A DNA stretch of 32,000 bases, from contig NZ_CP034549.1 of NCBI RefSeq assembly GCF_003966335.1, positions 1,770,001 to 1,802,000 of the forward strand. Direction: 5' to 3'. The stretch comes from Nonlabens ponticola. Lineage in GTDB: Bacteria; Bacteroidota; Bacteroidia; Flavobacteriales; Flavobacteriaceae. Of this stretch, positions 1-16,604 are shown piece after piece (positions within the stretch are counted from its first letter, which is position 1; each line of letters opens with the position of its first letter). The position numbers and the translations under genes were made by a program. The notes beneath the pieces are model-generated. The model saw only the letters and a list, made by a program, of their open reading frames with translations. It was not told where the DNA came from and did no database searches.

Positions 1-34
1 TTTTAGCTATTTGATATAATTCTTTTAAATTCAT
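1..34 (-). CDS. N-terminal fragment of the next cassette ORF (MNLKELYQIAK...), runs off the window
   Basis: ATG at 34-32 on the minus strand, 26 nt downstream of repeat R1. Same position relative to the repeat as the other cassette ORFs. Only 11 codons are visible. Confidence 0.3.
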   Translation of the reverse strand, partial: MNLKELYQIAK

Positions 35-60
35 ATTGTCTTTGGTTTGTCAAATTGCAC

Positions 61-188
61 ACAACGGTCTCGGCTATGAGTAGTTGCGTGGGTTAGCCTT
101 GTTTTCTCAAATGTACCCAACCCGTAGAAAATTTCGTAGAAATTTTTGGATGACCACAAACCGAGCAATTGTGTATAGCCCGTGTTGT
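61..188 (-). repeat. attC-like repeat R1 (128 bp)
   Basis: ACAAC (61-65) ... GTTGT (184-188). Arms GGCTATGAGTAGTTGC / GCAATTGTGTATAGCC. Inner hairpin AAAATTTC-GTA-GAAATTTT around 127-145. Confidence 0.85.
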
Positions 189-199
189 AAAACGTTTAT

Positions 200-802
200 T
201 TAGTAGCAATGAAGCGTTCGATGTTCCTCTTCTTCGTGATAATTTATTTCGCCACTAATAGCGTCGATTAGTAGTATTTCATCCTTTGAATAACATTTCT
301 CCTCGTAAAGCGTGTTGAAAACTTTCCATTCATATTTGTCAGTATGAATATTCCACTCCAATCTCATTGTTATAGGCGATACAGCTTTCTTTAATTTTAT
401 TTTCGATACGATGTTTTCGACTTGTTTTTTGGTCAGAAAATTTGAGTTTTCATTTTTGAGCAAATATTCCGGTATTCGCTCATCAAAATACATATCAATA
501 AATTTCAATGAGGTATCAAATTCCATATAAACTCCAAGATGTACATTTTCGAACGTGAAATTTGGATGGTTTAAATCATATAAAACTTCATATCTATCAA
601 AAGGCGAAGAAATCACATCTAAGCTATCAGTTTTGGCTAGCCGAGACTCTTTATCTAAACTGAAGTATTCAATTAAATGTTTTCCGAAATGGGCATTTAA
701 TACACTATCTGCTTTCACTAAAATTTGAGAGGCAGTATGATTTTGACCATTGCCATGGTAAGCCATTGAAACAAAAAAGAAAAATGTAATTAAAGGTTTC
801 AA
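200..802 (-). CDS. Cassette ORF: exported protein of unknown function, possible PepSY-like C-terminal region
   Basis: 200-aa ORF. TTG start 13 nt from R2. N-terminal hydrophobic signal-like segment KPLITFFFFVSMAY. C-terminal pattern LTKKQVENIV...YEWKV...LLIDAISGEI resembles PepSY domains. TAA stop 11 nt from R1. Confidence 0.6.
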   Translation of the reverse strand: MKPLITFFFFVSMAYHGNGQNHTASQILVKADSVLNAHFGKHLIEYFSLDKESRLAKTDSLDVISSPFDRYEVLYDLNHPNFTFENVHLGVYMEFDTSLKFIDMYFDERIPEYLLKNENSNFLTKKQVENIVSKIKLKKAVSPITMRLEWNIHTDKYEWKVFNTLYEEKCYSKDEILLIDAISGEINYHEEEEHRTLHCY

Positions 803-815
803 TTCTAAATGTTTT

Positions 816-942
816 ACAACGGTCTCAGCTATGAGTAGTTGCGTGGTTTAGCACTTAACTTTGCAAGTACACACCTAACTGAAAATCCGCGAGGATTTTC
901 AGAAGTAGGCGAGAACCAGCAATTACTTATAGCCATTGTTGT
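816..942 (-). repeat. attC-like repeat R2 (127 bp)
   Basis: ACAAC (816-820) ... GTTGT (938-942). Arms AGCTATGAGTAGTTGC / GCAATTACTTATAGCC. Inner hairpin GAAAATCC-GCGA-GGATTTTC at 881-900. Confidence 0.85.
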
Positions 943-951
943 ACACAGTAT

Positions 952-1734
952 TTATTTACTTAATTCTATTTGAAATTTTGTCGCATTAAATGCTGCTTGC
1001 AAACCTCTTAAATTTGTTTCAGATTTATTTTGTTCAAATAATTCAGCCAAGTATTCAGCTTGTTTGGTCACATTATCATTCTCCTTTTTAAATATTTGAT
1101 ATTTTAAAAGAATCAAATTCGCCATGATTTTATCTGAAATAGTTATATCACCTTGGTTTAGGTATTCCTTTATTGTACTTCCTATCTCGGAATCGTTTTC
1201 AGATAGTTCATCGAATAAGTAAGCATTAGCCAAGTCAGATTTATTCATAGTTGAGTAATCGTTTTGGTCAGACATATCTTTTCGGTAAGTCATTTTGTTG
1301 CCATTTAGAAAATACCATCTGGTGTAAGAATCATTTTCCATTTTGATTTCTTTTTCAAAAGCTTTTTTCTTTACAGTCCAATTTGTGAAAGCAATCAAAA
1401 GTTCAGTTCCGTCATCTTTCTTTAATATGGTAAATCGAATCAAGTAATTTCTTTTCCCTGGTTTTTCAATTTCGATGTCTAATTTATTTTCTACAGAAAC
1501 ATATTTTTTCAATGCTTTTAGAACTGATGAAACATCTTCAGGACTTGCTTCAGGAAATAAGTTTTCTCTTAAAAACAAATCAATGTATAAGTAATGAGTT
1601 AAATAAAAATCATCCATTTTCAGATAATTCGCCTCTGTCAAATGTTCGGTTTTGATATTGATTTTGTCTGATTGAGAATATCCAAAATTTGTGAATATTG
1701 CTAAAAGTAAAAGTGTGATTATTTTTCTGTTCAT
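952..1734 (-). CDS. Cassette ORF: exported protein of unknown function
   Basis: 260-aa ORF with ATG start. Signal-like N-terminus MNRKIITLLLLAIFTNFGYSQ. TAA stop 9 nt from R2. Confidence 0.65.
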   Translation of the reverse strand: MNRKIITLLLLAIFTNFGYSQSDKINIKTEHLTEANYLKMDDFYLTHYLYIDLFLRENLFPEASPEDVSSVLKALKKYVSVENKLDIEIEKPGKRNYLIRFTILKKDDGTELLIAFTNWTVKKKAFEKEIKMENDSYTRWYFLNGNKMTYRKDMSDQNDYSTMNKSDLANAYLFDELSENDSEIGSTIKEYLNQGDITISDKIMANLILLKYQIFKKENDNVTKQAEYLAELFEQNKSETNLRGLQAAFNATKFQIELSK

Positions 1735-1754
1735 TCTGTTGGGTTATATTGTGT

Positions 1755-1881
1755 ACAACGGTCTCGGCTATGAGTAGTTGCGTGGTTTAGTACTTAACTT
1801 TGCAAGTACACACCAAGTTGGAAATTCCGCAGGAATTTCAAAAGTAGGCGAGTAGAAGCAATTACTTATAGCCATTGTTGT
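1755..1881 (-). repeat. attC-like repeat R3 (127 bp)
   Basis: ACAAC (1755-1759) ... GTTGT (1877-1881). Arms GGCTATGAGTAGTTGC / GCAATTACTTATAGCC. Inner hairpin GAAATTCC-GCA-GGAATTTC at 1821-1839. Confidence 0.85.
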
Positions 1882-1891
1882 ATGCTGGCTT

Positions 1892-3388
1892 TTAAAGTCT
1901 CATCATTACCTCCGTTAATTTATTTTTTCTAATTTTCCATTGAAATTCTCTTAACTCCTCTATTTCAATGTTGCCATCTTTCGCTTTTAAAGTTTCAATG
2001 AAATCTCTTACCGTTTTGTCATTCCTTTGCCTTAATATGCAATGGTAAGTTAGTCCAACAAAGAAATATCCATCTTCTTTAGCTCTTTCAATAAATTCGA
2101 CTTTGTGGTCAGCTAGATCTACAACTTTACCATTAATTTCAGCGTACCCATTTTGATATTCACTGTATGATATGTGATGCTCATCATCAACAATTGCAGT
2201 ATGAAATGTCTCTTCTCCTTCAACAATAAATGGTTCTGACTTATTATGATGAACTAAAATGAAGTCATTAAAAACACTGTTGTCATAGAATACCCAAATT
2301 TCTTTTATTGAGTATTCTGAATCCCAAAATTTCCAGGTAGCTAACCCTTTTCTTGTTAGTGTAAAATCAATATTTCCAGAACCATCGTGCCACCACAGTT
2401 TATTATCAAATAGTTCTTCATTATCCTTAAAGGTTTGGAAAAGACTATCTATTCGTTCTAAATCATTGCTATGAACAAAGCCCCAGTTATTTTTTGGAAA
2501 ATTACTACGAACAACTCTATTAAAGTCGTACATATATTCGAAAATATCTTTTTCTCTACTATCCTTTATATATTGTTTGATGTCTGCAATGCTTTGGAAT
2601 CTTTGGCTTGGTTCATTTTTTAAACAATTTTCAATAACTCCATTAAACATTCTCTCATCTTCTATTTTGAGAGAAATTCTTTTTCTTCCCGTGCCTCTGT
2701 GTGTATTTCCTGTAGCAAACCATTGTAGAATTTGGCCAATTGCATATATATCCATAGTCGGATGTGAATCTTTGCCGGCTATTTCTTGTTCTGGTGCAGA
2801 AAAAAGTCTATTACCAATTCTTTCATTCTTGACAGTTTTTGCTCGGATTTCAAAAATTTCAGGATTGTAACTGGCGATTCCAAAATCTGCTAAAACATAT
2901 TTTCCATCTTTAACTAAAATGTTTTCTGGTTTTAAGTCTCGATGAATAATGCCTTGACTATGTATTTCATCTACTGCATCCAATAAAAAATTAAGTAGTT
3001 TAATGAAATTTTGACCCTTGTTTTCTGATTCATCAAGTTTTAATGAACTTTCATATTCCTTCATCATTATCACTGGAATAATCGCAGAACCCTCTTCATC
3101 CTCGAGGTTTAGCAAATCGTAATCCACATATTTAACGATGAAATTCGTTTTCTCAATAGTTACTATGTTGAAATATTCTGCTAAAAAACGCTCGGTCTTT
3201 GTTTTTAGAGATTTTCCAGAGGTATTACTCAAAAGAAATTTGAAAGCAAATGTCTTTCCGAAAATTTCACCTTTGTATACAATTCCGTTGCCACCTTCAC
3301 CAATTTTATCAATCAAATTTATTTCTCCAACAGAAAGCTGAATCTTATTTTTATTGTCTTTTAAATATCTTGAAAATCGTTCTTTCAT
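1892..3388 (-). CDS. Cassette ORF: Ser/Thr protein kinase domain fused to a ~200-aa C-terminal domain of unknown function
   Basis: 498-aa ORF. Glycine loop GEGGNG plus lysine in FAFKF. Catalytic loop HRDLKPENILV. DFG (LADFGIA). APE-like SAPE. No signal peptide. Confidence 0.85.
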   Translation of the reverse strand: MKERFSRYLKDNKNKIQLSVGEINLIDKIGEGGNGIVYKGEIFGKTFAFKFLLSNTSGKSLKTKTERFLAEYFNIVTIEKTNFIVKYVDYDLLNLEDEEGSAIIPVIMMKEYESSLKLDESENKGQNFIKLLNFLLDAVDEIHSQGIIHRDLKPENILVKDGKYVLADFGIASYNPEIFEIRAKTVKNERIGNRLFSAPEQEIAGKDSHPTMDIYAIGQILQWFATGNTHRGTGRKRISLKIEDERMFNGVIENCLKNEPSQRFQSIADIKQYIKDSREKDIFEYMYDFNRVVRSNFPKNNWGFVHSNDLERIDSLFQTFKDNEELFDNKLWWHDGSGNIDFTLTRKGLATWKFWDSEYSIKEIWVFYDNSVFNDFILVHHNKSEPFIVEGEETFHTAIVDDEHHISYSEYQNGYAEINGKVVDLADHKVEFIERAKEDGYFFVGLTYHCILRQRNDKTVRDFIETLKAKDGNIEIEELREFQWKIRKNKLTEVMMRL

Positions 3389-3408
3389 TTTGTTATTTCA
3401 GCTTGCAT

Positions 3409-3536
3409 ACAACGGTTATGTATAAATATAGTTGCGGGTTTGCGTGCGAAGAATTTCCGAAGGAAATTTAGATGTAGCAAATACGCAACTGCCTTTATTT
3501 TAGCACTAAACCGCAATTATTTTTATACGGTGTTGT
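3409..3536 (-). repeat. attC-like repeat R4 (128 bp, divergent sequence, same structure)
   Basis: ACAAC (3409-3413) ... GTTGT (3532-3536). Arms GTATAAATATAGTTGC / GCAATTATTTTTATAC still pair. Inner hairpin AATTTCC-GAA-GGAAATT at 3452-3468. Confidence 0.8.
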
Positions 3537-3545
3537 GCATAGTTT

Positions 3546-3935
3546 TTATTCACATACTTTATTTTTTTCAATCCACGGATTAATAAATTTCCTTTCAGTT
3601 CCGAGTATTGTTTTCATTTCGGGTTCGTCGAAAATTAGATAGAAATTTTTGTCTTTTTCCACGTATTTAAATTTCAATTCAGTACAATATTTTCCAGTGC
3701 CGTGATTTACGAGCATACTTATAATTCCATCTTCAATTTTTATGTCTTTCACGGATTCCACCATAATAAAATTAACTTTTATATCAGAAGGAATTTCTTT
3801 TTCACTATAATTTCCAAGGTCATTCATTTCAATCATTTCGTCAACGATTTCTTGAATCCATTTGTCAATAGATTTTTCTTGGTTGATTTGGATGTTTGAA
3901 ATTCCAATCAAAAATGTCAGTAAAATTATTTTCAT
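3546..3935 (-). CDS. Cassette ORF: small exported protein of unknown function
   Basis: 129-aa ORF with ATG start. Signal-like N-terminus MKIILLTFLIGISNIQ. TAA stop 9 nt from R4. Confidence 0.6.
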   Translation of the reverse strand: MKIILLTFLIGISNIQINQEKSIDKWIQEIVDEMIEMNDLGNYSEKEIPSDIKVNFIMVESVKDIKIEDGIISMLVNHGTGKYCTELKFKYVEKDKNFYLIFDEPEMKTILGTERKFINPWIEKNKVCE

Positions 3936-3956
3936 ATTCTGTTTCTCAAATTATGC

Positions 3957-4083
3957 ACAACGGTTTGGGCTATGAACAGTTGCGTGGGTTAGCACGGACT
4001 TCTACAAGTAAACTGCAAGCTGAAAATTCCGCAGGAATTTTCAGGATAAGCCTGTAATAGCAATTGTTTATAGCCATTGTTGT
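3957..4083 (-). repeat. attC-like repeat R5 (127 bp)
   Basis: ACAAC (3957-3961) ... GTTGT (4079-4083). Arms GGCTATGAACAGTTGC / GCAATTGTTTATAGCC. Inner hairpin GAAAATTCC-GCA-GGAATTTTC within 4021-4043. Confidence 0.85.
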
Positions 4084-4093
4084 AAAACGTTTT

Positions 4094-4690
4094 TTACTCC
4101 AAATATTCTACATCAGAACGAACTTTTTCACGCCATTTATTTCCGTATTTTTCGTCCATTAGTTCAAATATCCGTTCGTTATATTGTTCAATACATTCCG
4201 AAATTGGTGGTTCACAACCAAAATCAAAATATTTAACTTTAAATCTTTTCTCAAATCGATTGCCGGAAGGTGAGTTTGCAATTGGTGCAATTGAACCAAC
4301 AAGTAATAAATTTGCCGTTCCGTTTTTCCAGTCAGATTCTGCACGTTCAGCATTATATTCACAATCCGCTTTTAATTCAAACGTCACGTTATTAATTCCG
4401 TTTTTCGTTTCGACGTCAAACTTTTGTTTTCAGTAACCGAATGCAGAGATCTCTATAATATATTTTTGATTAGGTTCAAGATATTCAATTCGGAAATTAC
4501 CTAAACTGTCAGCCATAATTAATGGTTGTTTAGTAATCAATTCTTGAACATAAATATCCGAAATTGGTTTTTCTCCTGAAACTCCGCTAATCACCTTTCC
4601 TACGATTTCAGTTTGTCCGTATATAATTCCGCAAACTAATATTAAAATCAGTTTGATAATGTTTTTCTGTATGTTCAGATTTTTCTTCAA
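4094..4690 (-). pseudogene. Cassette ORF split by one in-frame TGA: N-terminal CarboxypepD_reg-like exported segment (4430-4690) plus a C-terminal part (4094-4387)
   Basis: The 86-aa and 97-aa ORFs are in the same frame. 4388-4429 is 42 nt (14 sense codons, KQKFDVETKNGINN) and the only interruption is the TGA at 4432-4430. The downstream ORF has only a GTG start. There is no attC-like repeat between them. Confidence 0.5.
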
Positions 4691-4697
4691 ATGTTTT

Positions 4698-4825
4698 ACA
4701 ACGGTCTAGGCTATGCGCAGTTGCGCGGTTCATCCTTATTTTTCCAAATATATTCAAACCGTAGAAAATTCCGCAGGAATTTTCGGATGAGCAATGACAG
4801 AGCAATTGCGTATAGCCATTGTTGT
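4698..4825 (-). repeat. attC-like repeat R6 (128 bp)
   Basis: ACAAC (4698-4702) ... GTTGT (4821-4825). Arms GGCTATGCGCAGTTGC / GCAATTGCGTATAGCC. Inner hairpin GAAAATTCC-GCA-GGAATTTTC at 4764-4784. Confidence 0.85.
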
Positions 4826-4834
4826 AAAACGTTA

Positions 4835-5599
4835 TTATTTATAAACTCTTTCATAAATTCCTATTTCGCAACCGCTACATGTGCTCAATATAGAATTTCT
4901 CTTTTTAATATGTTTAATTAGTATTTCATCCAACTTGCTTAGTTCGAAACTGGTGTTCTCGTCTAAATATTCCAAAGCGTCTACTCCGTAAGTTTGTAAT
5001 TCTGGATTAAATGATTTTAACCATTCTCTAAACTTTTTCGCATTCCTTTTTTTATCGAATTTGAAATCATTATATCTTGGTATTTTGTAAGAAATAGGCG
5101 CATATCCACAAAAGTATCCGTAAATATGATAAGATAATACCTGACTGATAAAGTCTTCTTTTTTTAAGTTGGTTTGGTAGAATACATTATGATTACTTAA
5201 ATATTCGTCAAACGTAGTTTCTTCAAAGTAAAATTCGGTGTCTTTTCGATAAGTATCAAAACTTATTAAACCTACTATGATATTATTTTTTTTGAACGTA
5301 TGAACATTATACGATTTATTTTTTATCTGTTTGTTATCAGGATAATTAATGTTTACTTCATATACTGATTCGGTTAAACCGTAGTCGATATCTCTAGCAT
5401 ATAGGAATCCGCCAAAACTATATTTAGGATTAACCTCTCTTATGGTTTTGAAATCAATCAACTTTAAAGTGTCCAAATCAAAATTTTGGTATTCTTTAAA
5501 ATAGTTCTGAATTTCAGCTACCGCGTTCATTTCCGCTTGACTTTGAGAAAAAGACAATAATGGAATAAGCAATAAAATAAAAAAGTTTAGTGTCCTCAA
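4835..5599 (-). CDS. First cassette ORF: exported protein of unknown function
   Basis: 254-aa ORF. TTG start (no in-frame ATG before a stop). Signal-like N-terminus RTLNFFILLLIPLLSFSQSQ. TAA stop 9 nt from R6. Confidence 0.6.
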   Translation of the reverse strand: MRTLNFFILLLIPLLSFSQSQAEMNAVAEIQNYFKEYQNFDLDTLKLIDFKTIREVNPKYSFGGFLYARDIDYGLTESVYEVNINYPDNKQIKNKSYNVHTFKKNNIIVGLISFDTYRKDTEFYFEETTFDEYLSNHNVFYQTNLKKEDFISQVLSYHIYGYFCGYAPISYKIPRYNDFKFDKKRNAKKFREWLKSFNPELQTYGVDALEYLDENTSFELSKLDEILIKHIKKRNSILSTCSGCEIGIYERVYK

Positions 5600-5616
5600 A
5601 GGTGTTTATTAAAATG

Positions 5617-5632
5617 TTTTACAACGGTTATA
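5617..5632 (-). other. attI-like half-site (left arm of the repeat only)
   Basis: TTTTACAACGGTTATA matches the flank, ACAAC core and spacer of the repeats (AAATGTTTTACAACGG is shared with R2 and R6). The sequence then becomes unique, with no right arm. It lies between the first cassette and the recombinase. Confidence 0.7.
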
Positions 5633-5636
5633 TAAA

Positions 5637-5667
5637 CAAACCTAAGCCATTTATTACCAGTTTACAA
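5637..5667 (-). promoter_or_regulatory. Candidate Pc-like promoter reading into the cassette array
   Basis: The minus strand reads ATTG (5668-5665), a 20-nt spacer, then TAGGTTTG (5644-5637). This resembles the Bacteroidetes -33 TTTG / -7 TAnnTTTG consensus and is positioned just upstream of the half-site. Motif match only. Confidence 0.25.
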
Positions 5668-5674
5668 TACTATA

Positions 5675-5699
5675 TGGTAGGTATATGCAAACCTTTTGA
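5675..5699 (+). repeat. Direct repeat DR-a (TGGTAGGTATATGCAAACCTTTTGA)
   Basis: Matches DR-b at 23 positions with two 1-nt indels, 48 bp upstream of DR-b. Contains a 4-codon mini-ORF, ATG CAA ACC TTT TGA. Confidence 0.7.
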
Positions 5700-5707
5700 T
5701 AGATTTG
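5700..5707 (+). promoter_or_regulatory. Candidate -7 box (TAGATTTG) for the recombinase gene
   Basis: Matches TAnnTTTG 25 nt upstream of the ATG at 5732. No convincing -33 element found. Confidence 0.2.
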
Positions 5708-5722
5708 AACATAATTCACTTT

Positions 5723-5745
5723 TGGTAGTATATGCAAACCTTTGA
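5723..5745 (+). repeat. Direct repeat DR-b (TGGTAGTATATGCAAACCTTTGA), overlaps the recombinase start codon
   Basis: Second copy of DR-a. Its ATG (5732) opens the 277-aa recombinase ORF. Confidence 0.7.
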
Positions 5746-6565
5746 CGATTTTAGGCAGTTAATGACCATTAAAAGGTATGCGCCCAACACTATTGATTCT
5801 TATCGTGGTTTACTCATTGCCTTTCAAAAATTCCTAGGGCATGATCATCCTATCGACGAGTTGCAGGATCGTCAAATAAAAGAGGCAGTAAGCGAGGTAG
5901 TCGTAGCAAAGTCTCTTGCCGTTGCCACGCAAAAGCAACTACTGTCTGCACTAAAACTCTATTTTAAAGAGATGCACAGACGCGATCTTGACTTTTATAG
6001 CGTCTATCCTAGAGTAAAGCCTAGACCTATTCCAGTGATTTTGAGCACGCAGGAAGTAGGAGCAATTTTATCGCATACCAAAAACTTGAAACATAAAGCC
6101 ATGCTAACGCTAATTTATGCGTTGGGATTACGCAGCGGCGAGCTCATCAATCTCAAAATCAGCGACATCGACAAACATCGCAAGCTGGTACACATTAAAA
6201 GTTCCAAAAACAAAAAGGATCGTATCATTCCTTTTCCTGATGGTCTGGGCGAGCTTTTAAATAAGTACTACAAGGAATACCAACCTACGGAATTCTTATT
6301 CAACGGCCAGTCCACAAATCAGTACCACGCGCAAAGCCTGCGCAAGGTGTTCCACAAATCGTGTAAGCTTGCTGGAATCAACAAGAAAGTTACACTGCAC
6401 AGTTTGCGCCACGCCTATGCCACGCACCTCATGGATGCAGGAACTGATTTGCGTGTCATTAAGGAATTGCTGGGTCACAACAGTATCAAGACAACATTGA
6501 TCTACACGCATGTAACCAATAAAACGCTTCAACACTTGCCCAATCCGCTGGATTTTATCAAATAA
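5732..6565 (+). CDS. Tyrosine site-specific recombinase, XerC/XerD-like, lacking the IntI-specific insertion
   Basis: 277 aa. N-terminal SAM-like core-binding region (YAPNTIDSYRGLL, ATQKQLLSALKLYF). Catalytic signature LGLRSGE (Arg I), HSLRHAYATH (His-x-x-Arg), LLGHNSIKTTLIYTHV (His, Tyr). About 60 aa separate KKDR from LRH. Confidence 0.9.
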   Translation: MQTFDDFRQLMTIKRYAPNTIDSYRGLLIAFQKFLGHDHPIDELQDRQIKEAVSEVVVAKSLAVATQKQLLSALKLYFKEMHRRDLDFYSVYPRVKPRPIPVILSTQEVGAILSHTKNLKHKAMLTLIYALGLRSGELINLKISDIDKHRKLVHIKSSKNKKDRIIPFPDGLGELLNKYYKEYQPTEFLFNGQSTNQYHAQSLRKVFHKSCKLAGINKKVTLHSLRHAYATHLMDAGTDLRVIKELLGHNSIKTTLIYTHVTNKTLQHLPNPLDFIK

Positions 6566-6666: not shown

Positions 6667-7974
6667 CTATTTTTGTCGCTCGTATTTACTCATGTAGCGC
6701 TCGTATAAATCTTTTTGCCTGGTGTCCAGCGAGATGTCACGGCCGTCGATAAAGGCGCGAGTCAATTTATTGGTACGCATGTCCAACGCATTGCCCTGTG
6801 ATATGAATAGGGTAGCGCTCTTACCTTCTTCCAGCGAGCCATAATCAGCGTCTATGCCTAGGATCTTGGCAGGATTGAGCGTTATCATCATCAAGGCTTG
6901 TTCCGCATCCACGCCATGGCCAGTGAGCGTTCCTGCATAGAATGGCACGTTGCGCACCTGGTGACGCTCCATACTACCAGAATTCTCCAACGCAACGGTG
7001 ACTCCAGCATCTGCTAGGATTTTTGGAAACTTGTACGGCATGTCAAAGTCGGCGTCCTCACGTGCCGGTAAGTTATGTACACGACCTGCGAGTACGGGAA
7101 CTCCAGCGGCCGCAATGTCACCAGCTATTTCCTGTGCACCACGAGCTCCTACCAGTACTAGGTTTTTTACATTGTTAGCTTTCGCGAAAGCTAACACATC
7201 AACAATCGCCTTCTCACCAGATACATGCATGTACAAGTTTGCATTGCCGTCCAGAACACGTCGCATCGCCTCCATTTTCAAGTCCTTGTCTGCTGGATTG
7301 TCTGTAGATTTATAAGCGACCGCTTGACGCATAAAGTCGCGCAGTGCCTCAATGTCCTCATCATAATCCTTGCTAGGCTCGATAGGCCCGTAATTAGGCC
7401 ACGATCCCGATCTACGGAAGCTGGCAGGCCAGTTCACATGAATACCATCATCCATGCGCACGGCAGCATCTTCCCAGTTCCACGCGTCTAGTTGCACCAC
7501 GCTGGACTGTCCAGAGATGCGACCACCACGCGGTACCGTTTGAGCGATCAATATACCATTGGGCCTCATGGTTTCTACCACGCGAGACTCTGCATTGTAA
7601 GCAATTATACTACGTATATGCGGATTAAAAACTCCCAACTCGCGCTGGTCGTCACTGGCATTTACGGCATCAACTTCTACCAATCCTAGCGTAGTGTTGG
7701 CAGCAATAAAGCCAGGATACACGTGCATTCCTGTGGCATCAATAACCTCACCTTTGGGTGCCATTCTTACCGTGGTAGCATCTGCAATGGCGGTGACTTT
7801 CCCGTTTTCTATAACAATGACTGAATTTTCAATTACCTCGCCATTACCTATATGAGCGGTACCATTCATAATGGTGTAAGCTCCAGTCTGTGGTGCGGCT
7901 GGCATTTGTTGGGCTAGGGCAGTGGTGCCTAGCATCGCCAGTACTATATATAATATGTTTTTCATGTCTTTCAT
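6667..7974 (-). CDS. Amidohydrolase-family protein, exported (HxH motif absent)
   Basis: Start trimmed to MKDMKNILYIVLAMLGTTALAQQ (ATG at 7974; alternative at 7965). Amidohydrolase-like N-terminal beta-sandwich pattern VIENGKV...VIDATGMHVYPGF. The expected HxH position reads ANTTLG. Confidence 0.8.
   Translation of the reverse strand: MKDMKNILYIVLAMLGTTALAQQMPAAPQTGAYTIMNGTAHIGNGEVIENSVIVIENGKVTAIADATTVRMAPKGEVIDATGMHVYPGFIAANTTLGLVEVDAVNASDDQRELGVFNPHIRSIIAYNAESRVVETMRPNGILIAQTVPRGGRISGQSSVVQLDAWNWEDAAVRMDDGIHVNWPASFRRSGSWPNYGPIEPSKDYDEDIEALRDFMRQAVAYKSTDNPADKDLKMEAMRRVLDGNANLYMHVSGEKAIVDVLAFAKANNVKNLVLVGARGAQEIAGDIAAAGVPVLAGRVHNLPAREDADFDMPYKFPKILADAGVTVALENSGSMERHQVRNVPFYAGTLTGHGVDAEQALMMITLNPAKILGIDADYGSLEEGKSATLFISQGNALDMRTNKLTRAFIDGRDISLDTRQKDLYERYMSKYERQK
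7174..7195. repeat. Iterated palindrome copy 1 (core GCTTTCGCGAAAGC 7178-7191, extended to a 22-bp perfect palindrome GTTAGCTTTCGCGAAAGCTAAC)
   Basis: Read directly. Inside the 453-aa amidohydrolase, encodes LAFAKAN. Confidence 0.95.
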
Positions 7975-7975
7975 T

Positions 7976-10954
7976 TTACCAGTGTAGCGTTTCACATTCA
8001 TACAAGGTCTTGGTGGATTGTTTGGCAAGCTGCGTTTTCAAGCCTTTGTTTTTTGCCATAATCATTTCGTTTGTCAACTGTTGACGTTCCTTTTTTATGC
8101 TTTCGCGAAAGCTAACATCACGAGATTTCTCAAAGAACACAATACCATCTACCAGGGTATATTCCGGGATCGCCTTGATGTCTAGCGGATTGTGGTTCCA
8201 CAAAACGATATCTGCATCTTTACCTTCCTTGATGCTACCTACACGGTCGTCGATATGCAGCAGTTTTGCAGGATTGAGTGTGACAAACTTCCAGGCTTCT
8301 TCCTCGCTCACGCCACCGTATTTTACAGCCTTGGCAGCTTCCTGGTTCAAGCGTCGTGACATTTCTGCATCATCACTGTTAAACGCGGTAAGAACGCCTT
8401 GTGAATGCATGATGGCACCATTGTAAGGTATGGCGTCGTTCACTTCATACTTGTAAGCCCACCAGTCGCTAAAGGTTGATCCACCAGCGCCGTGTTCTCT
8501 CATCTTATCAGCCACCTTGTAACCTTCTAGAATATGCGTGAATGTGTTGAGTGTGAAACCGTATTTCTCGGCCACCTTCATCATCATGTTGATCTCGCTC
8601 TGTACATAAGAGTGGCAGGTCACATAGCGCTCGCCGTTGAGAATCTCAACCAGCGTTTCCATCTCCTCATCATAACGGAAGTTGTTATCGCCTCTAGACT
8701 TGTCATATTCCTGCGCACGTGTAAAGTAATCTTCAAAAACCTGCTCGACACCCATGCGCGTTTGCGGGAAACGTATGCCGTTCTGGTATCTGGACTGCTT
8801 CACGTTCTCACCCAGCGCAAACTTGATAAACTTAGGTGAATTGTCATAGATCATCTCCTGCGGGCTATAACCCCATTTAAGCTTGATGATCGCACTACGG
8901 CCACCAATGGGATTGGCACTACCGTGCAGCAGTTGCGAAGTCGTAACGCCACCAGCAAGATCACGGTAGATGTTGATGTCCTCGTGATCAACAACGTCCT
9001 CGATGGTAACCTCGGCAGTACTGTTATGTCCAGCCTCATTTACACCTTGATCAATGGCGATGTGCGAGTGCTCATCAATAATACCACTAGTTAGGTGCAT
9101 GCCGCTGGCATCAACCACTCTAGCGCCACCAGCGCTCAGGTTTTTACCTACTTTAGAAATCTTACCGTTCTTGACCAGTACATCGGTATTCTCAAGAATA
9201 CCAGCATCTTCATTAGTCCATACGGTCGCGTTTTTAAATAGGATGGTTTCTGCTTTGAGTTTTGTTTTAGAGCCGTAAGCCACATTAGGATAGGTCATGT
9301 TGCCTAGATCGGTGATCATTTCTTGATCGGCTTCATCCTCTTTATCGTCATCGTCTTTTTCATCTTCTGCTTTCTTATCGGCTTGTTTTCTAGCGACAAA
9401 GGATCTTTCAATCCCATTAGGTAAGTAAACCTTTCCTTTCAACATCTGCGGATTACTCTCGGTCAATTTCATGCTCCAGCGCGTGTAGGTTTTATCATCA
9501 GCGTCCTTTTGGGATGTCGTGATGGTAATCCAGTCGTCGTTGCGCACGATCTTGCTGCCTAATTTTGTGCTGTCCAGCATGACTTTAACCGTCTTTGCAT
9601 CGCCGCTGATAGCCAATTCATATGTGTCGCCGTTTACTATGGCTTCATAAGTTCCATCCACGTTGAGTAAACCACGATCTTTCAACACATGCTTGGATCC
9701 TTGAACCCAATTTTCATAAACATCAGTGTCTTTTTCAAAAAGCTCGCCACTGGTAACGATAAAGTTTGCGTGCTTTCCTTTTTCCAAGGTTCCAATAGAA
9801 GAACTCAAGTTAAGCAATGCTGCTGGTGTGGTTGTTAGTGCAGCTAGTGCTTGATCTGCGGTCAATCCATATTGCATGGCACGCATCAATTTTGCATGAA
9901 GCTCGTCAGGTGATTTTAAACCATGTGTAGTAATACTGTATTTCACGCCAGCATCGGCCAATTTTTTAGGATTAGCAGGTGCTTGTTTCCACTCACGCAT
10001 GTCAGCGAGATTCACGTACCATTCTTGGTAAGGGTCAGTCACGTCATAAGCATCTGGGAAATTGATCGGTAAAATTAGTTGTGCATTGGTAGCTTTAATG
10101 GCATCCACCATCTCTAGCGCATCTTCACCACCTACAATGACAAATTGCTTGCCTACGCGATCACCGACCTTATCTGCTCTTAATACATTTTTCTTATTTC
10201 CAGCTTCTATGTATTGAACCAGGTTCTTATTGGCATTCAATGCCTCTAGTGAGCGGTCTTTGGTTTTGGAATTGCCAGCGGCATACCAGTCTGCATCAAA
10301 GTGTGATTGACGTAACAAAGCCATAGTTCCCATAAGCGAAGTAGGATAGGACTGGTTCGTCTGTCTACTACGGTCAAATGAGAAAAACTGACCACTCTTA
10401 TTATTCAGGATACGTTGCGAGTCGTCACCATTATTATTTAGCGCGACAACCATACCAGTACCACGAGCGATACCGTCGTGTAAGTGCGTTTGTACCACAC
10501 CATAACCAGCTTTCATCATGCTTTCGGCTTTCTTTGAGTCGTACTCGTAAAAGTCGATGGCATCCTGCTCGGCACGTATGTGGTCGTTCCAGTAAAAACC
10601 TTGTCGACCTTCATCGTATTGTTGACCGCGTGACTCATTCTTAGGAACCGTCATTCCAAAGTCTGCATAGGTCTCAATGAACGATGGGTAAATAAAAGTG
10701 CCGGTAGCATCTTCTACTACGGCATTTTTAGGAATCTTAATGTTGCGACCTACGTCCACAATTTTGCCGTCCTTAATCAGGATCGAGGCGTTTTCTAACT
10801 TCTTTCCCGGACTCGTGATGATAGTCGCACCAGTCAAGGCACGCATCGACTTACTCACTGCCGATATATCATCATTATTGGGAAAGTATTCTTGGCCTTG
10901 CGCGGTCATCGCCGCCATCGCCAGAATGGAAAAAAGTATTTTTTTCATATACAT
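7976..10954 (-). CDS. Large two-module amidohydrolase-family protein, exported
   Basis: 992 aa with signal-like N-terminus (MKKILFSILAMAAMTAQGQ; ATG at 10954 or 10948). N-terminal module IKDGKIVDVG...VEDATGTFIYPSF lacks HxH. C-terminal module VKNGKISKVG...VDASGMHLTSGIIDEHSHIA has it. Confidence 0.85.
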   Translation of the reverse strand: MYMKKILFSILAMAAMTAQGQEYFPNNDDISAVSKSMRALTGATIITSPGKKLENASILIKDGKIVDVGRNIKIPKNAVVEDATGTFIYPSFIETYADFGMTVPKNESRGQQYDEGRQGFYWNDHIRAEQDAIDFYEYDSKKAESMMKAGYGVVQTHLHDGIARGTGMVVALNNNGDDSQRILNNKSGQFFSFDRSRQTNQSYPTSLMGTMALLRQSHFDADWYAAGNSKTKDRSLEALNANKNLVQYIEAGNKKNVLRADKVGDRVGKQFVIVGGEDALEMVDAIKATNAQLILPINFPDAYDVTDPYQEWYVNLADMREWKQAPANPKKLADAGVKYSITTHGLKSPDELHAKLMRAMQYGLTADQALAALTTTPAALLNLSSSIGTLEKGKHANFIVTSGELFEKDTDVYENWVQGSKHVLKDRGLLNVDGTYEAIVNGDTYELAISGDAKTVKVMLDSTKLGSKIVRNDDWITITTSQKDADDKTYTRWSMKLTESNPQMLKGKVYLPNGIERSFVARKQADKKAEDEKDDDDKEDEADQEMITDLGNMTYPNVAYGSKTKLKAETILFKNATVWTNEDAGILENTDVLVKNGKISKVGKNLSAGGARVVDASGMHLTSGIIDEHSHIAIDQGVNEAGHNSTAEVTIEDVVDHEDINIYRDLAGGVTTSQLLHGSANPIGGRSAIIKLKWGYSPQEMIYDNSPKFIKFALGENVKQSRYQNGIRFPQTRMGVEQVFEDYFTRAQEYDKSRGDNNFRYDEEMETLVEILNGERYVTCHSYVQSEINMMMKVAEKYGFTLNTFTHILEGYKVADKMREHGAGGSTFSDWWAYKYEVNDAIPYNGAIMHSQGVLTAFNSDDAEMSRRLNQEAAKAVKYGGVSEEEAWKFVTLNPAKLLHIDDRVGSIKEGKDADIVLWNHNPLDIKAIPEYTLVDGIVFFEKSRDVSFRESIKKERQQLTNEMIMAKNKGLKTQLAKQSTKTLYECETLHW
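8099..8112. repeat. Iterated palindrome copy 2 (GCTTTCGCGAAAGC)
   Basis: Read directly. Inside the 992-aa amidohydrolase in a different frame (SFRES). Confidence 0.95.
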
Positions 10955-11013: not shown

Positions 11014-12120
11014 CTACTTATAATGATTAACTAACAATGCCACCACATAAGAATAGGTGCGCATACCATCAGGCTGGTTGTTTGCTTTGAGATAGGTGTT
11101 GTAGGTAGCCTGAGATGCTTGCTCGATAATGTTATTATCGTATGGTGCCCAAAAATCTCGCAGTTCTTGCCAGTTTTTAAAAACACCTCGCTTAATGTCA
11201 GGTTTTAATTCTTCATATAGAGCTGGATCGCGTCGGTACAAATCGTTAAGACAGTATTTCAATGCAAAAATACTCGCGCTGTATTGGAAATACAGGTCCT
11301 CATGATTCATGCCAGTGATGACGGCTATGAAATTGGCCTCGTTTTCCTTGGCAAACCCTAATTGGTGAGACATCTCATGCAAAATGAGTACTGGCGTCTT
11401 AAAGTTATTGATGTTACCGTTGGTATGTGCCTCGCCGGTAATGGGATTGAGGTAACCGCTATAACCCATATAGGTAAGCGGCCATGTAAGGAGCGATCTC
11501 TTGATACTAGGTTGTCCATAATCCAGCTGCGGATATACGCTTGCGATTCTTTCAAAACCGCTTGGAGCCAAATCAAATAGTTCTTCCTGAGAGCGATCAA
11601 AAGCCACAGCCAGCGTATCATTTTGCTGCAATTGACTGTGTAGCATATTACTGGTTGCAATCAATTGCTGCGATACTTGCTGTAATTCTGCCGTGGTATA
11701 ATCTGCATCTATATTTAATACCTTATTCAGTGGCTGGCGGTAATAATTAAAACCCCAAGCCAGGTGAAAGAACAGCAATAGGATATTTGCAGTCAGGAAT
11801 AGTTGCGTGTACCGCTTTCTTGCCTGCCGATAGGCACGGCGCGACTCCTGCATTGAGCGTAGTCGAAGTGGCGCAATAAGTTCCCATCGATAAACTATCA
11901 ACCAGCGCAGCATCAATAGTCCACCGACTACATAAACAACATCGCCAAAAGAAAACGGCAGCCATCCTAAACCTATGCGCATGGCGCGAGCTATATACGG
12001 ATAGATGCCGGTGCTGTAGTAGGTTTCTATGAAATTTGGGAATGACCTTAGGATACGGTAGCCTATAATTTGAATCGCAAGCGATGTAAAGGACAAGATA
12101 AGTACCCAGCTTTTCTTCAT
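11014..12120 (-). CDS. DUF3810-like membrane protein, putative zinc metallopeptidase
   Basis: 368 aa. Hydrophobic N-terminal segments. HExxH motif in ILHEMSHQLGF. Family assignment from memory of DUF3810 architecture. Confidence 0.7.
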   Translation of the reverse strand: MKKSWVLILSFTSLAIQIIGYRILRSFPNFIETYYSTGIYPYIARAMRIGLGWLPFSFGDVVYVVGGLLMLRWLIVYRWELIAPLRLRSMQESRRAYRQARKRYTQLFLTANILLLFFHLAWGFNYYRQPLNKVLNIDADYTTAELQQVSQQLIATSNMLHSQLQQNDTLAVAFDRSQEELFDLAPSGFERIASVYPQLDYGQPSIKRSLLTWPLTYMGYSGYLNPITGEAHTNGNINNFKTPVLILHEMSHQLGFAKENEANFIAVITGMNHEDLYFQYSASIFALKYCLNDLYRRDPALYEELKPDIKRGVFKNWQELRDFWAPYDNNIIEQASQATYNTYLKANNQPDGMRTYSYVVALLVNHYK

Positions 12121-12199
12121 GACGCTAATCTATTAATAGGATTTTACAAACTAGGTATTGTGGTGACTTTTTCCCGACCTTTGATCAAAATAACATCCT

Positions 12200-13372
12200 A
12201 TGAATATCGTCCTTGCCGACTTTAATCTACACACGCCGTTATTGCCTTTCACCTATACGCGACCAACATCGCACATACGTTGCGGTATATTGACCATGGC
12301 TCAACGATGGGAAAAAATGCTGGACGCAACAGCTAGCTATTTGACGCAGGATTATCTGCAAACCAAATACCAGCTTGAGGAAACCGATGATAACCTTGTA
12401 GTGGCTGGACATATCTTTGCTACTGAGAAACTCGCCAAAGCAATTCTCAATCTAGAGCTAGGTCAAAAACTCATGGGTGGTAATCATGTCATCGCTTATA
12501 GAGCCAGTAAGATCCATACACCAACTATCGAGCTCACTCAAGTGCTTTTTACAGATGAAGAAGTCGATGGAATTTTTAATACTTGGGATATCTTTTCAAA
12601 AAATGGTAAAGCACTACAAGCAGATTTTGAACTGATCACCGCTGGCAGAAAAAGCCAACCCATTCCAGAAACGGTACAGACTGTCAATCCAGAAAACATT
12701 TTTATTGAGGAAGGCGCAAAACTGCAATTTGCCATACTCAATGCATCGACTGGTCCGATTTATATTGGCAAAAATGCCGAGGTCATGGAAGGCAGCATCA
12801 TACGCGGTGGTTTTGCACTATGTGAACACAGCGCTACAAAACTAGGAACTAAGGTCTATGGCCCGACGACGGTAGGCCCACATTCCAAAATTGGCGGTGA
12901 GGTCAACAATAGCGTCATCTTTGGTTATTCAAACAAAGGTCATGAAGGCTTCCTAGGCAACAGCGTACTAGGCGAGTGGTGTAACATCGGTGCAGATTCT
13001 AACACCAGCAATCTCAAAAACAATTATGCCGAGGTCAAATTGTGGAATTATGAAACAGGTAGGTTTGCAAAAACTGGTTTACAATTCTGTGGGCTCATGC
13101 TAGGCGATCACTCAAAATGTGGCATTAATACCATGTTCAATACAGGAACCGTAGTTGGTGTAAGTGCCAATATTTACGGTGCTGGCTACCCGCGCAATTT
13201 CATTCCATCCTTTAATTGGGGTGGCCCGCAAGGAAACATGGTTTACAAGACAGATAAGGCCTATGAAGTGGCAGATGTCGTGATGAAACGCCGTGGCTTA
13301 TCGTTGCAGCAAGAAGATAAAGATATTCTCGACGCAGTTTTTGAGCGTACCAGACAGTATCGCAAGGCTTAA
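12200..13372 (+). CDS. GlmU-family / hexapeptide-repeat putative sugar nucleotidyltransferase
   Basis: 390 aa. The C-terminal half has left-handed beta-helix-like hexapeptide periodicity (IGKNAEV, IIRGGF, VGPHSKIGGEV, VIFGYS, LGNSVLGEWCNIGA). Confidence 0.7.
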   Translation: MNIVLADFNLHTPLLPFTYTRPTSHIRCGILTMAQRWEKMLDATASYLTQDYLQTKYQLEETDDNLVVAGHIFATEKLAKAILNLELGQKLMGGNHVIAYRASKIHTPTIELTQVLFTDEEVDGIFNTWDIFSKNGKALQADFELITAGRKSQPIPETVQTVNPENIFIEEGAKLQFAILNASTGPIYIGKNAEVMEGSIIRGGFALCEHSATKLGTKVYGPTTVGPHSKIGGEVNNSVIFGYSNKGHEGFLGNSVLGEWCNIGADSNTSNLKNNYAEVKLWNYETGRFAKTGLQFCGLMLGDHSKCGINTMFNTGTVVGVSANIYGAGYPRNFIPSFNWGGPQGNMVYKTDKAYEVADVVMKRRGLSLQQEDKDILDAVFERTRQYRKA

Positions 13373-16261: not shown

Positions 16262-16269
16262 ATTCTTGA

Positions 16270-16312
16270 AATCCCAAATCCCAAATCCCAAATTCCAAAC
16301 TCCAAATCCAAA
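16270..16312. repeat. AATCCCA heptamer run, 3 perfect units then degenerating units
   Basis: aatccca aatccca aatccca aattcca aactcca aatcca... Confidence 0.85.
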
Positions 16313-16415
16313 ACTGAGGACTGAGGCTTCTCGAAGTCCGATTGTTAAAAATCCTAAATTCCAAATTTCGAGCAGAATGCTTGTTCGAGCGTAGTCGAGA
16401 ACTACTTATGTGAGA

Positions 16416-16471
16416 AATCCCAAATCCCAAATCCCAAATCCCAAATCCCAAATCCCAAATCCCAAATCCCA
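16416..16471. repeat. AATCCCA heptamer microsatellite, 8 perfect units
   Basis: Units start at 16416, 16423, 16430, 16437, 16444, 16451, 16458 and 16465. Confidence 0.95.
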
Positions 16472-16548
16472 AATTAAAGCAAAATGCGTGTTCGAACGCA
16501 GTCGAGAACTAATTGTCATGAAGTTTAAAATTCAGATTGTCAGTATCT

Positions 16549-16604
16549 AAATACTAAATACTAAATACTAAATACTGAATACTGAAAACCGAACACTGAA
16601 TAAT
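16549..16604. repeat. AAATACT heptamer run, 4 perfect units plus about 4 degenerate units
   Basis: aaatact x4, then gaatact, gaaaacc, gaacact, gaataat. Confidence 0.85.

Follow-up and report, generated by a model that had tools for sequence, protein, structure and literature searches.

The left end of a 32,000-nucleotide (nt) stretch of the Nonlabens ponticola chromosome (contig NZ_CP034549.1, positions 1,770,001 to 1,802,000; hereafter the window) carries long, imperfectly palindromic repeats that alternate with open reading frames (ORFs) and lead up to a gene for a tyrosine recombinase. Judged from sequence features, positions 1-6565 probably belong to an integron-like gene-cassette platform with a non-canonical integrase and form its end nearest to the recombinase, a reading to which a probability of roughly 0.8 can be assigned. 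Six repeats lie within positions 1-5642, each measuring 127-128 nt when taken as ACAAC...GTTGT or 123-124 nt when taken as AAC...GTT. By the former definition they span positions 61-188, 816-942, 1755-1881, 3409-3536, 3957-4083, and 4698-4825. The repeats occupy every intergenic gap of the array, directly after stop codons, and the gaps between them each hold one minus-strand ORF, one of which is frameshifted. The array ends at a half-site (5615-5642) located 109 nt upstream of the gene for the 277-amino-acid (aa) recombinase. The G+C content of the array is 30.5-33.6%, versus 40-48% in the remaining window, recombinase included, and a covariance model of the repeat found no further copies in the other 26 kb.

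The bases flanking each repeat pair with the neighboring repeat, as had been listed in a first-pass annotation of this DNA. At the six neighbor junctions, contiguous complementarity outward from GTTGT extends over 5, 5, 4, 5, 5, and 5 nt. The two flanks of a single repeat are mostly unmatched, as also claimed, with corresponding values of 0, 1, 1, 0, 0, and 5 for repeats 1 to 6; the lone value of 5 arises because the flank AAAAC occurs three times. Two details of that annotation need revision. The co-varying flank is not 4-5 nt long but includes 7 nt, one G:T position, and 3 nt more: the 7 nt after the GTT of site n are complementary to the 7 nt before the AAC of site n+1, position 8 is in every case a G to the right and a T to the left and forms a wobble, and positions 9-11 are complementary again. 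Also, GTTGT/ACAAC does not constitute an invariant core, because only AAC/GTT is retained throughout the family and the outer AC/GT bases vary and co-vary with the neighboring site. Over these flank positions, 58 of 60 match between neighbors versus 35 of 60 for the two flanks of the same repeat. Only 6 of 5040 possible reassignments of the flanks reach the value of 58, and these are the permutations of three identical GTAAAAC flanks. The left flank of the half-site pairs with the right flank of site 6. At the other end of the array, the left flank of site 1 (T-TGCACAC-AAC, 55-65) predicts a preceding site that ends in GTT-GTGTGCA-G-TTT.

The flank rule alone cannot decide at which end of a repeat the exchange takes place, but three comparisons with related loci can. 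An alignment of the recombinase family served to scan genomes for relatives and yielded at least 80 loci in Bacteroidota, including representatives from Nonlabens, Maribacter, Lacinutrix, Parapedobacter, and uncultured Bacteroidales; counts for relatives given below are among the matches listed. ORF 952-1734 encodes a 260-aa protein that is fully identical to one encoded in assembly GCA_001306415.1 (locus L081). The L081 copy of this cassette (window positions 818-1760) has 98.5% nucleotide identity across window positions 803-1760 and lies among unrelated neighboring cassettes; the match breaks off precisely behind the ...TTGTGTACAACG of the following site, that is, after AACG. The 7-mer before the AAC of the shared cassette is GTTTTAC in the window versus GTATGGT in L081, where it pairs with the cassette's own new neighbor through an ACCATAC link. 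In Maribacter halichondriae, a cassette is duplicated at 99.3% identity, and the two copies start at ACAAC, preceded by unlike bases, and each extends through ACAACGGT of the site that follows it, which differs between the copies. Similarly, Parapedobacter soli and P. defluvii have a common backbone of 4.5 kb with 90.5% identity, which starts at the half-site ..CTAT-AAC-TCTCAAATATACGCAAT and beyond which the arrays are unrelated.

From these three boundary comparisons, a cassette therefore consists of the body of a site, the ORF lying rightward of it in plus-strand coordinates, and the 7-mer and AAC of the next site. The flank rule, the shared and duplicated cassettes, and the backbone together bear out a crossover in the GTT/AAC triplet at a resolution of 4 nt. 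The earlier interpretation of the repeats as the footprint of cassette insertion is upheld by the shared cassette, the duplicated cassette, the shared backbone, and the presence of the half-site and recombinase at the end of the array. Its placement of the crossover at or inside the GTTGT/ACAAC core survives in part, because the exchange maps within AACG at the left (plus-strand) ACAAC end and not at the GTTGT end. Read in gene orientation, the ORF comes first and its site second, and it is the distal AAC/GTT triplet that harbors the exchange, which is also the case in integrons.

The flank rule was also evaluated among the relatives, where sites were detected with the covariance model and then with hidden Markov models (HMMs) of the arms (nhmmer), yielding 55 confident sites. 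A scanner relying purely on stem scores was dropped after it failed to separate true sites from background. Six to seven contiguous complementary bases are found for 25 of 32 pairs of adjacent sites, versus 2 of 55 comparisons of a site's own left and right flanks and 26 of 2822 comparisons between different loci. A link search independent of the site body, in which GTT-N7-G had to be followed within 150-5000 nt by T, the reverse complement of N7, and AAC, returned 104 links versus 12.4 in shuffled sequences and 18 in a same-7-mer control. Watson-Crick alternatives at flank position 8 gave link numbers near background. When this position was left unconstrained, 590 links were found versus 272 in a shuffle and 302 in the control, so the G/T constraint removed a high background. 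The expectation that matches across cassettes would be more common than matches within repeats thus holds for the wider set of copies.

The sites themselves form long hairpins. An R region (AAC:GTT) is separated from a 16-bp L stem by an asymmetric spacer, with 6-7 nt in the 5' arm versus 3 nt in the 3' arm, and the stem is closed by a variable loop. Among 39 aligned sites from many genera, AAC/GTT is invariant in all 39. The fraction of paired cells is 88.3% versus 70.8% in shuffles, although this alignment was fitted to the model and so somewhat favors structure. Compensatory changes on both sides are present at 14 of the 16 L-stem pairs, and shifting the pairing partner by 1-3 columns causes pairing to fall to 38-54%. 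Three stem positions are G:T in 39, 38, and 33 of the 39 sites, as is flank position 8. An invariant G:T pair becomes an A:C mismatch on the other strand, and accordingly, in 44 of 55 sites, the site strand folds more stably than the complementary strand (mean -20.6 versus -18.7 kcal/mol, p = 2.6e-7). The longest ORF lies on the strand opposite the site in 28 of 29 spacers between sites, most of which are almost filled by a single ORF, so that the favored strand corresponds to the bottom strand of the genes. The mapped junction falls at the 5' AAC of this bottom strand, and integrons cleave the bottom strand of attC at the equivalent position, between AA and C. No conserved single-base bulges were found in the sites, which instead have asymmetric spacers and invariant G:T wobbles. 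The spacers are unlike between sites of one array (GGTCTC, GGTTAT, GGTTTG, and so on), which argues against a classical two-strand exchange needing homology in the overlap.

Additional structural variety resides in the loops. A small internal hairpin (GAAAATTCCGCAGGAATTTTC or variants) is present in sites 1, 2, 3, 5, and 6, for example at 4764-4784, and site 4 has a comparable hairpin placed elsewhere. In related loci, the lengths of sites from AAC to GTT fall into classes of about 52-60, 122-127, 185-192, 233-240, and 286-300 nt, which suggests that discrete modules have been inserted in the variable loop.

The half-site at the end of the array is attI-like and reads T-GTTTTAC-AAC-GGTTAT-ATAAACAAACC on the plus strand, with ACAAC starting at 5621 and with the 3' arm absent. 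When the complement of the right flank of the last site was traced in 16 loci, 13 led straight to an AAC half-site upstream of the recombinase, and the other three led to an additional full site that had been missed by the HMMs. Homologous half-sites are located 108-115 nt before the integrase start in eight relatives. In the closest subfamily, the half-site comprises AAC, about 6 nt, and a TATAT-containing element resembling the 5' arm of a full site, and more TATAT motifs spaced about 25 nt apart follow downstream up to the start codon. The corresponding region in the window (5643-5745) carries periodic TATAT motifs as well as direct repeats GGTAGGTATATGCAAACC (near 5676) and GGTAGTATATGCAAACC (near 5724). 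The latter overlaps the recombinase start codon, whereas GGTAGGTATATGCAAACC opens a mini-ORF of four codons (MQTF and a stop) that matches the start of the recombinase. This region may contain accessory binding sites or promoters. In six other loci, including those of the two Parapedobacter species, 403-442 nt separate the half-site from the matched recombinase region downstream of it; proteins of this subfamily are therefore probably extended at the N-terminus by about 130 aa relative to the Nonlabens enzyme. A second architecture is seen in ten loci, where the sites are downstream of the recombinase and on the opposite strand.

The recombinase gene (5732-6565, plus strand) is divergent from the cassettes and encodes a protein with Phage_integrase and SAM-like domains. 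The NCBI annotation begins at Met11 and yields a 267-aa protein, but homologues support the 277-aa form. The candidate catalytic residues R134, K159, H223, R226, H249, and Y258 are invariant across 27 family members. None of the relevant NCBIfam models is passed. The best match is to XerA (196.6 bits versus a cutoff of 220), followed by XerD (184.3 versus 329.6), the integron integrase model TIGR02249 (182.5, in two pieces, versus 265), XerC (171.5 versus 335), and NF011946 (110 versus 435). TIGR02249 nevertheless is among the top three NCBIfam matches for 27 of 27 family members tested, with E values up to 1e-10. The IntI-specific insertion that bears helix I2 is absent by phmmer alignment, in which residues 170-200 (31 aa) replace residues 171-244 (74 aa) of VchIntIA (2a3v). 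An AlphaFold model (pLDDT 83) has a mere loop at 184-199, the site of the IntI insertion, and the best structural matches of this model are to VchIntIA (E = 1.6e-16) and XerA (3.5e-16). The model scores and structural matches therefore place the enzyme between Xer and IntI, without the I2-bearing insertion.

These observations can be assembled into a mechanism. Each cassette would consist of one minus-strand ORF and, behind it, a recombination site of its own that is about 124 nt long and has the plus-strand organization 5'-T-N7-AAC, 6-7-nt spacer, 16-bp L arm, variable loop, L' arm, 3-nt spacer, GTT-N7'-G-3'. The 277-aa recombinase, which is adjacent to the array and is the presumed catalyst, would exchange strands within AACG at the 5' end of the site on the plus strand, at the border between the 11-nt R arm and the spacer. 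Recombination of one site with another would excise the cassette as a circle and thereby bring its two N7 flanks together to pair. Insertion of the circle, which would occur at the half-site (T-N7-AAC plus a TATAT motif), would linearize the cassette and separate the paired flanks onto neighboring repeats, generating the observed pattern. By analogy with integrons, where recombination of the folded bottom strand is resolved by replication, the substrate may be a folded single strand, the bottom strand relative to the ORFs; the invariant G:T wobbles and unlike spacers would support this. Expression of the cassettes is envisaged to start from a promoter near the half-site.

Several observations weigh against this interpretation. 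The 6-nt spacer after AACGG differs at four positions between the L081 and window copies of the shared cassette, and a single crossover point inside AACG does not account for this difference. Seven of the 32 adjacent pairs violate the flank rule; four of these are off by a single mismatch, and the remaining three probably span long gaps with a missed site. Furthermore, the recombinase is co-oriented with the cassettes in some relatives from Bacteroidales, Chitinophagales, and other groups, and in locus L056 a frameshifted gene (two ORFs, 11652-12442) intervenes between the recombinase and the half-site AACTTGTTTATATG (near 12573). Also, an I2-containing insertion is held to be necessary in integrons for cassette capture, for single-strand recombination, and for avoidance of a second strand exchange (PMC7790495). 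The Nonlabens enzyme has no such insertion, so the single-strand pathway described here is an analogy.

Some of these same points would be expected if recombination proceeded on duplex DNA as it does at Xer/dif, with both strands exchanged. The core site would then be the R arm T-N7-AAC, a 6-7-bp overlap, and the L arm at the left end of the repeat, and the remainder of the palindrome would have some other role, for instance as a terminator or in protein binding. The recombinase is equally near XerA/XerD and IntI and lacks the I2 insertion, the left end of the site and the half-site have an 11 + 6-7 + ~11 layout like that of a classical tyrosine recombinase core, and the differing spacer of the shared cassette is possible if the overlap region is exchanged. 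Such an exchange would need homology in the overlap and would be blocked by the unlike spacers within one array. It also would not call for a long stem kept by compensatory changes or for G:T pairs that are invariant on one strand only, and the right boundary of shared cassettes falls before the spacer, not after it. Duplex recombination is therefore considered unlikely, though it is the most credible of the alternatives. It is even harder to sustain that the array is a classical integron whose integrase is merely a divergent but ordinary family member. The AAC/GTT triplets, the cassette layout, the attI-like half-site, the divergent integrase gene, the bottom-strand asymmetry, and the consistent ranking of TIGR02249 are all as this proposal would have them. 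However, the match to TIGR02249 is fragmented and well below the cutoff, the IntI-specific insertion is missing from both alignment and model, and such arrays are absent from the IntegronFinder 2.0 survey of Bacteroidetes (PMC9024848). The R boxes likewise are unlike RYYYAAC/GTTRRRY, and asymmetry takes the form of a 3-4-nt spacer difference without single extrahelical bases.

The least probable of the proposals weighed here is that the repeats are static intergenic palindromes, either REP-like elements or terminators, and that the recombinase is an unrelated neighbor. Their presence in every intergenic gap directly after stop codons, together with the small internal hairpin, is what static elements might look like. 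Palindromes of this kind give no account of flanks that pair across an ORF instead of within a repeat, of the half-site, of the same cassette occurring in different contexts with exact AACG boundaries, or of the steady linkage to this recombinase family in many genera. Other types of element were ruled out from the arrangement of the sequences. Target-site duplications of transposons are direct repeats, and the flanks here are inverted complements; CRISPR-like arrays, shufflons, and invertible segments were set aside given that all sites are in direct orientation.

The start of a further cassette lies at 1-65 (minus strand), where an ORF beginning with the ATG at 35-33 leaves the window leftward and the unit stops at the AAC of site 1. 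Site 1 (55-194, plus strand, as are all sites) is an attC-like imperfect palindrome that has T-N7-AAC at 55-65 and GTT-N7-G at 184-194 and scores 119.6 bits with the covariance model. It is followed by a 200-aa ORF without a family match (200-802, minus strand; unit 66-820) and by site 2 (810-948), which folds at -25.9 kcal/mol on the plus strand versus -23.5 on the minus strand. The next ORF (952-1734, minus strand; unit 821-1759) encodes the 260-aa protein that has an identical counterpart among other neighbors in the second assembly, and it precedes site 3 (1749-1887; 138.1 bits). Site 4 (3403-3542) is the most divergent copy at 92.8 bits, and its stem is preserved by compensatory changes. 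The 129-aa ORF beyond it (3546-3935, minus strand; unit 3414-3961) encodes a protein with a hydrophobic N-terminus and putative signal peptide. Site 5 (3951-4089) scores 135.1 bits and is followed by the frameshifted ORF (4094-4690, minus strand; unit 3962-4702), which is split into 4430-4690 and 4094-4387 and is probably a pseudogene. Site 6 (4692-4831) is the best-folding copy, at -33.2 kcal/mol on the plus strand versus -27.1 on the minus strand (z = -7.5). The first cassette beside the half-site carries a 254-aa ORF (4835-5599, minus strand; unit 4703-5625) whose product also has a hydrophobic N-terminus and putative signal peptide.

The largest cassette, between sites 3 and 4, encodes a 498-aa protein with a Ser/Thr protein kinase domain (Pkinase, 8.2e-24) and a C-terminal extension (1892-3388, minus strand; unit 1760-3413). 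PADLOC matches this protein to PD-T4-6 (6.5e-24), MkoA, and Stk2, and the match is limited to the generic kinase domain. Within that limit, the match would fit a role for cassette arrays as stores of defence genes. The related array of L081 includes, at 8219-8895, a Gp49 (RelE/HigB-like) gene adjoining a helix-turn-helix (HTH) gene, which together resemble a toxin-antitoxin pair. Toxin-antitoxin cassettes such as Gp49 with HTH are typical of large chromosomal integrons. At the end of the L081 contig, a transposase gene (rve) lies within the array.

Searches of the window as a whole returned no Rfam family match and no tRNA. Other repeated sequences were encountered outside of the array. The 14-nt palindrome GCTTTCGCGAAAGC has six exact copies, at 7178, 8099, 13931, 19091, 23994, and 28726, where none is expected by chance. 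At least the first two are inside long ORFs, where they encode A-F-A-K-A, and the palindrome is unrelated to the cassette sites. Also, positions 16269-16602 contain two blocks of AAATCCC heptamers (6.4 and 8.6 copies) followed by AAATACT-type heptamers. The blocks are separated by segments of about 100 nt that are themselves repeated, with 80% identity between 16357-16407 and 16464-16514.

A more general proposal can be offered only tentatively, and is judged somewhat more likely to be wrong than right. Bacteroidota might hold a widespread sister lineage of integrons, with hairpin sites, an AAC/GTT crossover, an integrase-side half-site, and stockpiled cassettes, in which single-strand hairpins are recombined without I2 and in which the strand is chosen by G:T wobbles and the asymmetric spacer. 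If so, acquisition of I2 was not the step that created cassette capture, and standard methods for integron detection overlook the cassette pool of a whole phylum. A family that lacks I2 but resides beside exchangeable, hairpin-bounded cassettes represents a natural test of the need for I2 in such recombination, and it might provide a view of how integrons originated from Xer-like enzymes. The arrays also would constitute a large pool of unannotated, mobile accessory genes in Bacteroidota from marine and gut habitats, among them a defence-like kinase and toxin-antitoxin pairs. For the study of this pool, the 7-nt flank rule offers a simple means to delimit cassettes and to locate the insertion site.

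Comparisons with known systems reveal both the kinship of the Nonlabens platform to integrons and its distance from them. As in integrons, the cassettes contain single, mostly promoterless-looking ORFs, each accompanied by a site that is imperfectly palindromic and keeps the AAC...GTT triplets. The cassettes are all co-oriented, and the recombinase gene is divergent with the half-site adjoining it. The crossover occurs at the AAC/GTT triplet and the outer R-box bases are part of the neighboring cassette, a footprint that reportedly was recognized in integrons decades ago. Relative to the ORFs, it is the bottom strand that folds better; the platform is conserved across species whose arrays are unrelated; and a toxin-antitoxin-like pair is present in a related array. 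Unlike in integrons, the IntI-specific insertion is absent from the recombinase, whose TIGR02249 score also does not reach the cutoff. Seven nt, a G:T wobble, and 3 more nt make up the cassette-specific portion of the R box, compared to 4 nt in integrons, and strand asymmetry appears to be provided by invariant G:T wobbles and a spacer of 6-7 versus 3 nt, whereas integrons use single extrahelical bases. The host phylum also has almost no integrons in surveys; that conducted with IntegronFinder 2.0 recovered only In0 elements and one complete integron (Salinibacter) from Bacteroidetes (PMC9024848).

Other features are reminiscent of Xer/dif and the elements that exploit it (IMEX, such as CTX phage, and the pdif modules of Acinetobacter). 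The enzyme is compact and of the Xer type, with XerA as its best NCBIfam match, and modules are bounded by short recombinase sites. In the case of CTX phage, an Xer enzyme is able to act on folded single-stranded DNA and to exchange just one strand (PMC7790495). The Nonlabens recombinase differs in being dedicated and encoded beside the array, whereas the Xer proteins are a housekeeping pair. Its sites are six tandem, direct hairpins of about 124 nt plus a half-site by the gene, compared to the single duplex dif of about 28 bp (11-6-11) per replicon, which has no link to cassettes, and its platform comprises many cassettes with the half-site adjoining the gene. Site orientation alternates in pdif modules but never does so here.

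A further comparison is with simple tyrosine recombinases, for which one study describes an 'integron-like' subgroup with an insertion that is not fully conserved (Smyshlyaev et al. 2021; PMC8138268). Proteins like the Nonlabens recombinase could be included in this subgroup, although the text consulted does not describe cassette arrays or sites for the members without an insertion. No published description of these arrays was found in the searchable full-text literature, which excludes subscription journals, and a prior description is possible. Overall, the system is an integron in its function and layout, yet the protein feature that defines integrons places it outside that group.

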